Origin: an uncultured archaeon
Lineage (GTDB): Archaea; Asgardarchaeota; Thorarchaeia; Thorarchaeales; Thorarchaeaceae
Length of the DNA: 32,000 nt
Direction of reading: 5' to 3'
NCBI GenBank assembly: GCA_964354495.1
Contig: CAYHAA010000005.1
Location: 30,001-62,000 of the forward strand
The translations under genes were made by a program, and so were the position numbers. The notes under the pieces were generated by a model. It did no database searches. It had not been told where the DNA came from and was given only the letters and a program-made list of their open reading frames with translations. This document shows, one piece after another, positions 16,800 through 25,948 of the stretch; positions within the stretch are counted from its first letter, which is position 1, and every line of letters starts with the position of its first letter.

Positions 16800-16993
16800 C
16801 TCGAGGACCGTAGCTATAAAAAAGGGGTGGTTCATGCGTATTTTGGTTTGAATGACGCAGGCATGCCGAGTCCGTCATACAGCACGACCCGAGTAACCTA
16901 GCGAAAGGAATCTGGAATAGGAAAGATAGACGAATGATGAGAGAATCAAGCTCTTCCACTCAGTCGCAGACGAAACCCATAGGCTCTAGGAAG

Positions 16994-18805
16994 ATGAAGA
17001 AGAGCACTGGATCATTCTACACGCCTCAAGACTTGGCTGTCCTAATTGCTAATGAGACTCTGAATAGATGGCTTGCTAGAAGGGGAGGCATACTCAACTC
17101 TGATGTCAGTAATCTCTCAGAGTTGGACCAAGCTTTGCAAATGCGTCTATTGGAACTCGTGAAGGACATACGAATCCTAGACCCAGCTGTTGGTGGCGGG
17201 GCATTCCTTCTCGCTGCCGCTGATTGGTTGAATACCGTGAGATTTGCTCTAGGAGATGTACTGACTGCGCCTGAGAAACGATACGACATTGTGAAAAACT
17301 CACTCTATGGTGTTGATCTAGTCAACCTGGCAGTAGACACGTGCAAGAGAAATCTTGTGACATGGAGTAATCAGGAAGTCGCCAAGGAGCCAATCCTCAA
17401 GGCAAGGGATTTGACAAGAATAAGGCAAGGGAACAGCCTTGTCGGTGTCGTCGAAGGGGCGGATTCTGCAAATCATGCCTCAAAAGAGGCCGTTGATGAC
17501 GCAGCCGCATTTGATTGGCCCACAGAGTTCAGTGAAGTCATGCATTCTGAAGAACCTGGATTTGATGTTATTCTTGGCAACCCTCCGTACGGAAATCTGC
17601 TGAATACTTGCGAACGACAGCACATCCAAACCACTTACCCTTTCAACGTAGGAGGCGGACGCGATGGTTCCTGGAATTGTGCAGCTCATTTTATTGTCCG
17701 TTCGAGAGCGCTCATGAAGAATGGCGGTCATCTCGGTCTCTTAGTCCCGAATAGCATTCTTAGAGTGAATCAGTTCAGTAAGACTAGAAGATTCCTTCTT
17801 GATGAGATGTGCCTATGGAAGATTGTTGATGAAGGCAGTCCCTTTGAAGGTGTAACACTTGAAATGGTCAGCCTCTTCTGCGAGGCGACCAATGACTGCC
17901 TGCATACTCAGATTGAGATTGAATCGCGAAGGCCTGGTCATGAACAATCCAATAGAGTAGAAGTCGAAGCACTAAGGGGGAGCAGGATATTCTCTATCTA
18001 CCATGATCCTCTGTTCTCAATGATTCTGAGAAAGGGAAAGCGAAACATGCTCACCGCTAACCGTGGCAGAGATATTCCAAAGGAACATGTCAGTGACGTA
18101 AGAACCAATGAATTCAAGATTCCTTACATAACAAGCGGTAGAAGTGTCGGAAGATACAGGATTGACACGCGGCGGCAAATCTATACCGACAATTGGTTCA
18201 GGCGAGACAAGAGGTTGACAGAGTCGTTTGAGAACAGGTTTCTGGTTGCCACCAAGAATCTCAGGTATCCGAGATGCGTAATGAAACCGACAGGCGTCAT
18301 TCATGGTGGAGGAATCGTAAGAATCGCTCCAAGCAATGGAGGTATTGATGGAGAGGTGGTTGGACTCATTCTGAATTCGCGACTCGTTCAGTACATATGC
18401 ATGCGATATCTGACGAACTACTCTCAGCTCACAACTTGCCTCAACACAGGCATCATGGATGATCTTCCTCTTGTCATCCCTGCTCGTCCTAATGTCTACG
18501 CAACGCTATTCGACGCACTCACAAATCTGTATGCACATGCAGATGATGCATGGTTTGAGAATTGTAGAAACAACTTCGAACGTCTTGTTGATGCAATAGT
18601 CTATGAGCTCTACTTCTGCAAAGACCATGGGTTGGAGGAATCGCTGGCAACAACATTACCAGAACGGTTCGACTCTATTGCGCTCTGCAATCTCTTGAAG
18701 GAGAGAAGAATAGCCAATAGAGTTGGAGATATAATGAAGATGCCAGCTGTCAAACAGATTGAGGAGAGACTTGATGCCACTAAGGAGGCGCCTCTTAGAT
18801 ACTGA
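16994..18805 (+). CDS. N6-adenine DNA methyltransferase (Eco57I/TaqI-like gamma group) with a C-terminal target-recognition domain
   Basis: GSFYTP, ILDPAVGGGAFL (motif I), YGVDL, IRQGNSL, FDVILGNPPYG (motif IV); TaqI_C-like C-terminus (GLILNSRLVQY). No nuclease domain is seen. The start may be at 16934. Confidence 0.92.
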   Translation: MKKSTGSFYTPQDLAVLIANETLNRWLARRGGILNSDVSNLSELDQALQMRLLELVKDIRILDPAVGGGAFLLAAADWLNTVRFALGDVLTAPEKRYDIVKNSLYGVDLVNLAVDTCKRNLVTWSNQEVAKEPILKARDLTRIRQGNSLVGVVEGADSANHASKEAVDDAAAFDWPTEFSEVMHSEEPGFDVILGNPPYGNLLNTCERQHIQTTYPFNVGGGRDGSWNCAAHFIVRSRALMKNGGHLGLLVPNSILRVNQFSKTRRFLLDEMCLWKIVDEGSPFEGVTLEMVSLFCEATNDCLHTQIEIESRRPGHEQSNRVEVEALRGSRIFSIYHDPLFSMILRKGKRNMLTANRGRDIPKEHVSDVRTNEFKIPYITSGRSVGRYRIDTRRQIYTDNWFRRDKRLTESFENRFLVATKNLRYPRCVMKPTGVIHGGGIVRIAPSNGGIDGEVVGLILNSRLVQYICMRYLTNYSQLTTCLNTGIMDDLPLVIPARPNVYATLFDALTNLYAHADDAWFENCRNNFERLVDAIVYELYFCKDHGLEESLATTLPERFDSIALCNLLKERRIANRVGDIMKMPAVKQIEERLDATKEAPLRY

Positions 18806-22101: not shown

Positions 22102-22196
22102 CCAAAAGACGCGAAGCGCTTGTACACTTTTATTTGAGCTGGCAAGGGTAGTGCGAAATCTTCGTGCTACCTGACCAGTGAATGGAGGAACTGATA

Positions 22197-23837
22197 ATGA
22201 GTCAACAAATACCGGTGATTGTACTGAAGGAAGACACCGAGAGAACTCGCGGTCGTGATGCGCAGAGAAACAACATCATGGCTGCAATCGTTATTGCTGA
22301 GGCTGTGAAGAGCGCGCTTGGACCAAAGGGTATGGATAAGATGCTCGTCGATAGCTTCGGAGATGTGACGGTCAGCAACGATGGCGCAACAATACTGAAG
22401 GAAATGGATGTTGCCCATCCAGCTGCGAAGATGGTTATTGAAGTAGCCAAGACAGTGGATGCTGAAGTCGGCGATGGCACAACTACTGCGGCTATCCTGA
22501 CGGGCGACCTTCTGAAACAGGCAGAAACATTACTGGATCAGAAGATACACCCCACGACAATCATCAGTGGTTATCGAAAGGCAGCCAACAAGGCACTCGA
22601 GGTAATTGATTCAGTTGCAGAGACTGTGGATCCTGCAGCAGCCGACTACAGGAAGATTCTCATTGACGTAGCCAGGACATCAATGTCAAGCAAGTTTGCA
22701 TCTACTTACCGTGAGCCACTAGCCAAGTTGGTTGTTGATGCAGTACTAGCTATCAGAAAAGACTTGCCTGAGGGCGAGGAGTTGGATGTTGAGAATATTC
22801 CACGGCAAAAACAAGTCGGAATGTCTGTAGACCATACCGAGCTGGTCAAAGGACTCGTGCTTGACAAGGAGATTATCCATGCTGGGATGCCAAAGAGATT
22901 GGAGAACGCGAAGATACTCCTGCTTGAGTCAGCTCTGGAAATAGAGAAGACGGAATTGACTGCCAAGGTCTCAATCACAGACCCAAGTGGCATGCAGAGT
23001 TTCCTCCAAGAAGAAGAACGCATGCTAAAGAGTATGGTCGACAAAATCGTCCAGTCTGGTGCGAATGTTGTGATCGCCCAGAAGGGCATTGACGATGTCG
23101 TTCAGCACTTCTTGGCAAAGAAGGGAATCATGGCTGTACGACGGATAAAGAAGTCAGACGTTGAAAGAGTTCATGAAACAACTGGAGCTGCAATTGTGTC
23201 AAAAATCCAGAACCTCACTTCTTCTGACTTGGGTAAGGCAAAGCTTGTTGAAGAGAGAACGGTCGGCGACGATAAGATGCTGTTCATAGAGGGCACTCCA
23301 AAATCAAGTGTCGTAACACTTCTCGTAAGGGGTGGAACTGACCACATTGTTGATGAGGTAGACCGTGCACTCAATGATGCTCTCCACGTAGTCGCTGATG
23401 TTGTCAAGCATCCACAGATAACCTACGGTGGTGGCGCTCTTGCAGCAGAAATCTCCATGAAACTCAGAGAGTATGCAACAACTCTTGAGGGCCGTGAGCA
23501 GTACGCTGCAAATGCCTTTGCGGATGCGATCGAATCACTGCCAACGACTCTTGCTGAGAACGCAGGGATGGACCCCATTGACGTAATTGTGAATCTGAGA
23601 AAGAGCCACACAGAGGGTCACATGTACCATGGTATCAATATGAACCTGATGAAGGTTGGCGATATGAAGAAAGCAAAAGTCATCGAGCCTGCAATAGTCA
23701 ACAAGCAGATTATCATGTCAGCATCTGAAGCTGCTCAGATGATACTGAAGATCGATGATGTCATCAGCTCAAAGGGAGCACCCAGTGCTGGCGGTGGCGC
23801 CCCTGGCGGCGACCATGAGGGCGGCGATGACGAATAG
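22197..23837 (+). CDS. Thermosome (group II chaperonin) subunit
   Basis: [30 protein letters not shown] motifs; GGAGG RBS at 22184-22188 before ATG 22197. Confidence 0.97.
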
Positions 23838-23873
23838 AAAGAGTCAAACGTGGAATAGTATCGGGTGTTGCTC

Positions 23874-24539
23874 ATGTCAGACGGCCCAGAAAAGGACGAA
23901 AACGAGACTGAGGAGGACCTTACTCTAGAAGAGATAGCCTCTCTTCTGAGCAATATAAGTGGTGTCGGACCAAAGACAGCTCAGAAGCTGGCGCAATCTG
24001 GTTATGACTCCATCGAAAAGGTAGCTCAGGCTCAGAAGGAAAAGCTTGCAGAGGCAGTAGCAGGCCTCAGCGAGTCAAAGGCTGAAGCAGTGATTACTGA
24101 AGCCATCGCGCTTGTCGAAAAAATCGAGTCTGGAGCCGTCGAACTGAGCGGCAAGGCTAAGTCAAAAAGGAAGAAGGCTCCAGAGCCTGAACCCGAACGA
24201 CATGAGCTAGCACCGATAGAGGCAATAACTCGGGCTGAAGAGCGAAAGAACCTTGTCACTGGTTATGACGAGGACAAAGCTGCCCTTGGAATCACCATTG
24301 GTCCGAAGTGGCTAACGAAGTACGAAAAGGCTCGGATTATCGGGGCGCGTGCGCTCCAAATATCCATGGGAGCTCCAGTCATGATCGAAGTGCCTGCCGC
24401 TCCTAGGGGACGCTTTGGATTCGCTGAGGAAGAGCTTCGGGCAGGGGTCTTACCAATGACTGTACGAAGAACTCTACCTACCGGCGAGTACAGTGACATA
24501 CCTCTCTCAGTCTTGCTGAAGAACACGAAGTTGGATTAA
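23874..24539 (+). CDS. rpoK: RNA polymerase subunit Rpo6/RpoK with an N-terminal helix-hairpin-helix domain
   Basis: C-terminal [22 protein letters not shown]...[10 protein letters not shown] (Rpo6/RPB6); N-terminal [24 protein letters not shown]...[11 protein letters not shown] (HhH). Confidence 0.93.
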
Positions 24540-24625
24540 GTCCATCCTCCTTCCCTCTTTCCATCTGATTCATCATACGACGCCTTAAAAGAGAATGGGC
24601 GCTCAAGTAGTAGTCCTAGTGGTGA

Positions 24626-25948
24626 TTGAGTTTGCAGGAACTTCTAGCAAGTGCCGACCTAATCATGAAAGCCCTCTTAGGGTTCGCAGTGGGGGCGCTT
24701 ATCGGGCTTGAACGGCAGAAAAAACTAGAAGCGAGCAGGACAGCAGGTGTACGCACTTTTGGTCTGCACAGCCTCTTGGGAACTATGACTGCCTACATGT
24801 CTGTCTGGATAGACAATCCTGTCATTCTCATCTACGGTGTAGCCATCTCGGTCATCCTTGTAGCTTCTCAGGTCTACTACAAGCTATTCAGGACCATGGG
24901 CAAAGGATTGACAACGCCCTTGGTGTTTTCAATGTCCTTTGTACTTGGCGTGCTCGTCGGATATGACGTTCCCATCCCAGGTCAGCCTTTTGGAATACTC
25001 TCAATCTTCTCAATGACAGTTTCATTTCTAGTGTTTCTAGTCTTGGGCTTCAAAGAGGAACTCGCCCATGCAATCGAGGGCATTGCGCGAGATGAGATGA
25101 TCAGCGCAGTCGAGCTGGCCGTAATAATCCTCTTCGTTTGGCCCCTAGTTCCCCAGACAATCCAACTGGGAGTCATCGAGTTCCCTGCATTCCAAGCCTA
25201 TTTCCTGATTGTTGTACTACTGACAGTCAAGTTCGCAAACTACTTGATGGTCAAGAAATACAAGGACAAAGGAGTCTACTTCTTTGGCATTTTCGGAGGT
25301 TTGGCTAATAGTGAGGCAGCAGTGTCGAGTCTGACAGACTTCTATGTGAAAGAAGGAAGGCGCGGAGCGGGCAAGATTGCGGTCGCTACAAACCTCGCAA
25401 ATATATCTATGACGCTGAGAAACGGATTCATCCTGCTTATCATAGACAGAACTCTATGGCTCCTCAGACTCTACATTGGCGTCATGGTAATTCTGATACT
25501 CATCAGCATGCTTCGAATGATTCAGGAAGCCAGAGCAGAAGAGAATGCAACTAAGACGTTGTACGATATCAAGCTTGTTTCACCTTTTGAACTTGGACCG
25601 GCACTGCGGTTTGGAGCCATCTTCTCAGGAGTATACCTAGTTCAATTGTTCTTCACCCAGACATTCAGTGGCACAGGACTTATCATTGCTGCCTTCTTCG
25701 GAGGTCTAGTATCAGCAGGTGCGGTGGTTGCTAGCTCCGCAGCAATATTCATGACCAATCCAGCGCTGTATCCCGAGGCGTCTGCCGCTATTGTCATTGC
25801 AACCATAGTAGCAGTGTTAAACAAGATGATCTATGTCTATTTTGCTGATAGAGAAACCGGATTAGTGAAGACTGTTGCAAGAGACTCCATCATCATTGCA
25901 TCATTCCTGACAATATACTTGTTACTGCATATCTTGGGCTACATCTGA
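24626..25948 (+). CDS. MgtC/SapB-family + DUF4010 polytopic membrane protein
   Basis: GALIGLERQ...AGVRTF (MgtC motif), FFGIFGGLANSEA, FFGGLVSA; many TM helices. Confidence 0.88.
   Translation: MSLQELLASADLIMKALLGFAVGALIGLERQKKLEASRTAGVRTFGLHSLLGTMTAYMSVWIDNPVILIYGVAISVILVASQVYYKLFRTMGKGLTTPLVFSMSFVLGVLVGYDVPIPGQPFGILSIFSMTVSFLVFLVLGFKEELAHAIEGIARDEMISAVELAVIILFVWPLVPQTIQLGVIEFPAFQAYFLIVVLLTVKFANYLMVKKYKDKGVYFFGIFGGLANSEAAVSSLTDFYVKEGRRGAGKIAVATNLANISMTLRNGFILLIIDRTLWLLRLYIGVMVILILISMLRMIQEARAEENATKTLYDIKLVSPFELGPALRFGAIFSGVYLVQLFFTQTFSGTGLIIAAFFGGLVSAGAVVASSAAIFMTNPALYPEASAAIVIATIVAVLNKMIYVYFADRETGLVKTVARDSIIIASFLTIYLLLHILGYI

Follow-up and report, generated by a model that had tools for sequence, protein, structure and literature searches.

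The Rpo6/Rpb6/omega protein is the one small RNA polymerase (RNAP) subunit common to all three domains of life, and Rpb6 sits at the base of the clamp, beside Rpo5 and Rpo1. Other archaeal Rpo6 proteins are 60-135 aa long or carry disordered tails only, none of them displaying a folded helix-hairpin-helix (HhH) domain. In eukaryotes, the N-tail of Rpb6 (RPABC2) is disordered and acidic and binds the PH domain of TFIIH p62 (PMC8754651); unlike the Thorarchaeaceae Rpo6 described here, it has no folded HhH. An analogue may be seen in the bacterial alpha-CTD, where a flexible linker likewise connects an (HhH)2-type domain with a small subunit involved in the assembly of a multisubunit RNAP. However, the alpha-CTD is C-terminal on the alpha/Rpb3 homologue, whereas the HhH domain considered here is N-terminal on the omega/Rpb6 homologue and is not matched by the alpha-CTD model PF03118.

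The fusion itself is already on record for Thorarchaeota Rpo6, in one sentence and with one example (PMC13257274; Int J Mol Sci 2026;27:4679, May 2026). The authors termed the domain 'helix-loop-helix' while citing the HhH fold paper, suggested that the fragment may stimulate transcription, and proposed a role of a structural type for elongated Rpo6 forms. Their protein belongs to the same family and has the same architecture as the one analysed here, and the fusion is thus not new. The view of archaeal Rpo6 as a protein that is normally small and has a single domain was too simple, since N-extended forms are common (PMC13257274) and the sister family carries a 65-residue tail, but the folded HhH is indeed peculiar to the lineage. 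PMC13257274 contains no analysis of distribution, selection, linker, duplication or paralogues and no test of function. Our analysis adds the exact phyletic limits of the fusion, its insertion in place, its single-copy status, the basic patch and the constant linker length, as well as a duplicated-module variant, selection estimates and parallel fusions on eL32 and Topo VI-A.

The gene lies in a 32,000-nucleotide stretch of a Thorarchaeaceae genome (contig CAYHAA010000005.1; "the window" hereafter refers to the whole of this stretch). As the preliminary description had proposed from the letters, one ORF runs from an acidic tip through an HhH domain and a Lys/Pro/Glu linker to a complete Rpo6 core, in agreement with the ORF list, Pfam, NCBIfam and AlphaFold2. 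Its coordinates hold for the linker as well as for the HhH domain (23940-24110, residues 23-79) and the core (24290-24539, residues 140-221). This succession of acidic tip, HhH, basic and Pro/Glu linker and Rpo6 core can be taken as practically certain, and the refined limits are given in the table.

Features of the fused rpoK/rpo6 gene in window coordinates; dN/dS values are indicative only.
Feature	Position	Strand	Residues and remarks	Basis	dN/dS
rpoK/rpo6 whole gene	23874..24539	+	221 codons + stop; single uninterrupted frame		
GGGTG Shine-Dalgarno-like motif	23863..23867	+	6 nt 5' of the rpoK ATG	read from sequence	
Variable, mostly acidic, disordered tip	23874..23924	+	1-17	pLDDT about 40-50	0.43
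Five-helix (HhH)2 domain	23925..24128	+	18-85	HHH_5, AlphaFold2	0.09
End of last helix, then Lys/Arg patch	24129..24182	+	86-103	alignment, charge	0.05 (basic patch)
Pro/Glu-rich linker (EPEP..HELPP..)	24183..24260	+	104-129	alignment	0.12
Rpo6/RpoK/Rpb6 core	24261..24536	+	130-221	NCBIfam NF002207, Foldseek	0.05

The frame runs from the ATG at 23874 to the stop at 24537-24539 with no internal stop (ORF list and translation). An in-frame GTG is present upstream, at 23865, but the ATG is the likely start because every homologue opens with MS(D/K/E)... The preceding ORF (22182-23837; Pfam Cpn60_TCP1) encodes a thermosome subunit and its stop (23835-23837) is separated from the rpoK ATG by a gap of 36 nt which contains the GGGTG motif, making it likely that both genes belong to one transcript. 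Between 20471 and 28324 of the window, a co-oriented block comprises an ARMT1-like phosphatase, an 86-aa ORF, the thermosome, rpoK, an MgtC/DUF4010 membrane protein, HisRS and a Memo-like protein. This block is kept throughout the class, and rpoK is found here outside the usual rpoN-rpoK-eno-rps2 type of context. Further upstream, at 16934-18805 (+), the window encodes a 623-aa protein resembling Eco57I/MmeI-type N6-adenine DNA methyltransferases.

The fused protein is a genuine Rpo6/RpoK, and the sole such subunit encoded for the RNA polymerase of this member of the Thorarchaeaceae. The NCBIfam RpoK equivalog model NF002207 matches residues 137-220 (E = 7.9e-27; 93.4 bits for a cut-off of 71), and Pfam RNA_pol_Rpb6 (PF01192) matches residues 144-194 (28.6 bits for a cut-off of 26). 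In Foldseek, the best 47 matches of the core come from chain F (Rpb6) of Pol I/II/III/IV/V and from Sulfolobus RpoK, at a TM score (target) of 0.5-0.7 and 39-48% identity, as expected for an Rpb6 fold; residues 130-221 are a full member of the family formed by archaeal Rpo6/RpoK, eukaryotic Rpb6 and bacterial omega. Mean pairwise identity of the core within the family Thorarchaeaceae is 0.72. In this 97.7%-complete genome, a single Rpb6 match exceeds the cut-off, which is this gene, present in one copy and at a position orthologous to that of the plain rpoK of relatives. The second, normal rpoK that could have served as the true subunit is absent from the genome: the only other Pfam Rpb6 match (contig C3, E = 0.65) is a chance weak match to a 211-aa Translin-family protein (PF01997, E = 8e-9; G000:C3:59014-59649 = L002:1333-1968, + strand). 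The fused Rpo6 would presumably be incorporated into the RNAP.

The N-terminal domain is matched by Pfam HHH_5 (PF14520) over residues 24-77 (E = 1.2e-12; 48.5 bits for a cut-off of 27). The full-length AlphaFold2 model, built on an input alignment of 21 sequences, displays five helices over residues 18-85 (pLDDT 75-83), disorder from 86 to 129 and a folded core from 130 to 221, and the same five helices were obtained with the N-module alone (pLDDT 80-87). The helices (18-25, 33-42, 47-52, 55-61 and 67-86) are those of a five-helix (HhH)2 fold. They enclose two hairpins, G30-V-G32-P-K and G64-L-S66-x-x-K69, the first of which has the canonical DNA-binding form (I-x-G-V-G-P-K-T-A) and is additionally matched by Pfam HHH and by the Pol lambda fingers domain. 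The domain is 68 aa long in 19 of 20 family members, with G32, G64, S66, K69 and A70 invariant and L25, I28, G30, A36, K38, L39, G43, K49, A59, I74 and A77 nearly so. Its net charge is -1 over residues 24-77 and -4 over 18-85, ranging from -10 to +2 in the family.

The closest HhH relatives are the N-terminal domain of RadA/Rad51 and the (HhH)2 repeats of Topo V (E = 4e-7 to 1e-3, rmsd of about 1 A, 37-41% identity); unlike in those proteins, the HhH is here without a recombinase or topoisomerase core and is joined to an RNAP subunit. For the N-module, Foldseek ranks the N-terminal domain of RadA first (37-38% identity and an rmsd of 0.9-1.0 A over 57-58 residues), and further matches include Topo V HhH repeats solved on DNA, UvrC and ERCC1-XPF, as well as NusA AR1/AR2 (1wcn, 1wcl, 6ib8, 1u9l; rmsd 1.2-2.6 A) and the N-lobe of Rad51 in complex with the histone H4 tail (8xbw). 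A PDB sequence search returned the same relatives and, in addition, the N-terminus of Haloarcula L32e. The alpha-CTD model was absent from the 15 Pfam matches at E up to 1, so that the domain does not belong to that family, and the likeness to NusA AR is structural only, as the model TIGR01954 scores 18.8 bits for a cut-off of 48.15.

The segments flanking the HhH domain were compared in 20 fused sequences from 16 genera. The acidic tip is poorly conserved (mean pairwise identity 0.32), with a net charge of -3 to -19 in 18 of the 20 family members. Segment 86-103, which includes a Lys/Arg patch of the KSKRKK type at about residues 94-101, is 14-21 aa long and basic in all of them (net charge +3 to +9). 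Linker 104-129 is exactly 26 aa long in 20 of 20, with E104, P107, L112 and P114 nearly invariant. In some relatives of 320-325 aa (P0006 and P0009), the HhH, the basic patch and the Pro/Glu stretch are duplicated in tandem as one unit, which argues that the three work together. Rough Nei-Gojobori estimates within the genus, which are only indicative because dS is near saturation (1.0-1.7) even at this level, suggest that purifying selection on the HhH, the patch and the linker (dN/dS 0.05-0.12) is near that on the core (0.05).

The fusion is real and conserved, and it is lineage-specific. We found it at full length in about 78-80 of the 85 family genomes, across 15-16 genera and at 51-87% identity, the remaining genomes having contig-end fragments or lacking the gene from incomplete bins. 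The N-module alone (residues 1-135) is detected at E <= 1e-12 in 79 of the 85 family genomes and, in the same survey, in neither the one sister-family genome nor any of the 314 other Asgard genomes. The survey of Rpo6 architecture across Asgard genomes called for in the preliminary description thus confines the fusion to the family (79-80 of 85, against 0 of 1 and 0 of 314). With HMMER over 1.84 billion representative proteins, only three other 50%-identity clusters carry both domains, all other matches being Rpo6 only or HhH only; homologues are recorded as 'Candidatus Thorarchaeota ... DNA-directed RNA polymerase subunit K'. An apparently unfused 90-aa copy in one relative (G056), with the same MgtC-HisRS neighbours, is truncated by the contig end and hence is no evidence of an unfused form. 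As candidates for fusions outside the lineage, the N-extended Rpo6 proteins P0145, P0151, P0157 and P0149 have no HhH by Pfam, and P0230 was called as a fusion of a different type, LarA-Rpo6.

The order ARMT1-like, thermosome, rpoK, MgtC/DUF4010, HisRS is identical in every family locus fetched, and also in the single sister-family genome (G025), whose Rpo6 (L022:2859-3317, + strand; 153 aa) has neither an HhH nor any folded N-domain. Since fused and HhH-less loci share one gene order, the module was inserted in place, into the existing tail of an orthologous gene. The sister-family tail is disordered and about 65 residues long. It is acidic apart from a short basic stretch, retains an EP..L.L.P stretch like that of the fused linkers but has no HhH, and in layout resembles the eukaryotic Rpb6 tail. 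In the family ancestor, a RadA-N-domain-like (HhH)2 module with its adjoining Lys/Arg patch would have been inserted into such a pre-existing disordered, charged N-tail.

Modules of this type are also found on other machines of the lineage, and the Rpo6 fusion is one case of a family-wide spread of the module onto nucleic-acid machines. The same genome contains 12 HHH_5 matches, among them RadA with its standard N-domain, and both Topo VI-A and eL32 carry N-terminal HHH_5 modules with Lys-rich linkers. Topo VI subunit A (G000:C1:554795-557056, + strand; L030:1796-4057) is 753 aa long and has two HHH_5 modules, of net charge +3 and +4, with low-complexity, Lys-rich linkers on either side. Another genus has the fusion as well (L042, G063), and relatives carry up to seven modules (P0124, 950 aa). 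The Topo VI-B gene is directly upstream, and the N-terminal low-complexity part of Topo VI-A contains a run of N or missing bases. The ribosomal protein eL32 (G000:C7:42530-43432, - strand; L032:528-1436) is 301 aa long, with one HHH_5 and about 110 residues of Lys-rich linker; this fusion occurs throughout the genus and in the five other genera checked, with one to four modules (L034, L035, L037, L038, L040, L041), and the sister-family eL32 (136-aa frame) has no HhH fusion. Haloarcula marismortui L32e (PDB 1S72 chain Y; NCBIfam PRK12766) shares this design, an HHH_5 and a charged linker preceding, on the N-terminal side, what is a small subunit in a large nucleic-acid machine. The host of the eL32 fusions is, however, the ribosome and not the RNAP, and the eL32 linker is much longer and more Lys-rich than that of Rpo6. 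A literature search on helix-hairpin-helix and L32e in archaea returned no paper. A predicted complex between the Rpo6 HhH (15-92) and the eL32 HhH (1-66) scored 0.00 against a mark of 0.32, which speaks neither for nor against binding.

We slightly favour a reading, based on sequence and models, in which the HhH and the basic patch form a tethered grip on duplex nucleic acid (dsDNA) without sequence specificity. The Rpo6 core would assemble into the RNAP as usual, with the HhH and the patch on a tether of fixed length, about 44 residues. They would grip the sugar-phosphate backbone of a duplex, most probably of DNA near the polymerase, and thereby raise the affinity of the RNAP for the template or its retention on it. 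We infer both the DNA binding and the DNA segment contacted, the segment that the arm would reach being deduced from the position of Rpb6 at the clamp base. This reading is favoured because the first hairpin is canonical and the hairpin lysines are conserved (K38, K49 and K69 are invariant or nearly so), because the basic patch is co-conserved and co-duplicated with the HhH, because the closest relatives (Topo V repeats, RadA/Rad51 N-domain) handle DNA, and because Topo VI-A, which acts on DNA, bears the same kind of module. Against it, the HhH is itself slightly acidic while the Topo VI-A copies are positively charged, the modelled fold equally resembles the protein-binding NusA AR and the histone-bound Rad51 N-lobe, and the eL32 fusion counts in the same direction since the module is not confined to DNA enzymes. 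The invariant length of 104-129 further suggests that this segment is not a free tether but lies along the surface of the polymerase, in which case the arm would reach less far.

The main rival is a protein-docking arm, which we consider possible although less probable: the (HhH)2, perhaps together with the acidic tip, would recruit a transcription, repair or chromatin factor to the RNAP. Such docking has precedents in NusA AR2 with the alpha-CTD and in the Rad51 N-lobe with histone H4. It would account for the Foldseek matches to NusA AR1/AR2 and to the H4-tail-bound Rad51 N-lobe, for the near-neutral to acidic net charge of the HhH core and for the acidity of the tip in most members, and it is in line with the eukaryotic RPB6 N-tail being a documented factor-binding platform (PMC8754651). 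However, the GhG-P-K signature canonical for DNA binding is retained in the first hairpin and absent from AR domains, TIGR01954 stays below its cut-off and PF03118 is unmatched, the basic patch conserved and duplicated with the HhH points to nucleic acid, and no candidate partner has emerged so far.

A purely structural or assembly role, with the extension packing on Rpo5 and on Rpo1's Rpo6-interacting domain (RID) so as to stabilise the polymerase without any ligand of its own, is unlikely. AlphaFold3 models do predict extra Rpo6-Rpo5 and Rpo6-RID contacts in Thorarchaeota (PMC13257274), and the invariant length and conserved Pro/Leu positions of 104-129 fit such packing. This explanation accounts for the linker but not for a separately folded HhH with conserved hairpins and a basic patch. 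In addition, the tandem duplication of HhH plus patch is hard to square with docking at a fixed site, unrelated machines (eL32, Topo VI-A) bear the same module, and the pTM of 0.39 of the full-length model is consistent with two independent domains.

The read-level check proposed at the junction revealed neither a stop nor a misassembly. In an independent study, one DNA contig of 2864 bases runs through 23300-24900 with 88 substitutions and no gap; a further contig, 462 bases long and from a metatranscriptome library, matches 23948-24409 gap-free, from the HhH via the linker into the core. The RNA runs, seen as contigs, attest to presence across the junction rather than to transcript ends or expression level and are no proof of transcription, and X17 and X9 cover parts of the stretch only. 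An artefact, whether a misassembly or a mis-called join of two adjacent genes, has a negligible chance of being the explanation, given the single stop-free open frame, the selection on all parts of the fused gene and, excluding misassembly, these two gap-free contigs together with the same fusion in about 80 independent assemblies of 51-87% identity.

If the arm does grip DNA, this archaeal, eukaryote-like polymerase would have a natural equivalent of the bacterial alpha-CTD, and the arm would illustrate how polymerases acquire built-in contacts with DNA or factors; the comparison with the alpha-CTD, as a tethered module that binds DNA or factors, is acceptable as an analogy. An Asgard lineage has independently built a folded domain of a nucleic-acid-binding type on the tail that became a factor platform in eukaryotes, and all its members have retained the domain under strong selection. 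A wider and distinctly speculative idea, which we regard as improbable, is that the ancestor placed the HhH-plus-basic-linker module on Rpo6, eL32 and Topo VI-A as a lineage-specific nucleoid-tethering system holding the transcription, translation and DNA-topology machines on the chromosome; if true, the Rpo6 and eL32 arms would help to bring about spatial coupling between transcription and translation in an Asgard archaeon. The practical value of the fusion is limited, with its architecture already in print, its function putative and, to our knowledge, no Thorarchaeon in culture.

We also considered the HhH as a stand-in for a missing Rpb5-type jaw, and dropped this idea because Rpo5 already has an N-terminal extension of its own. 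The Rpo5/RpoH gene, outside the window (G000:C5:143806-144363, - strand; L033:1486-2043), encodes 185 aa with Rpb5_C at residues 108-180, preceded by an extension of about 105 residues. This extension shows a weak PD-(D/E)XK-type match (Mrr_cat, E = 6e-5) and may be the counterpart of the N-terminal jaw domain of eukaryotic Rpb5.
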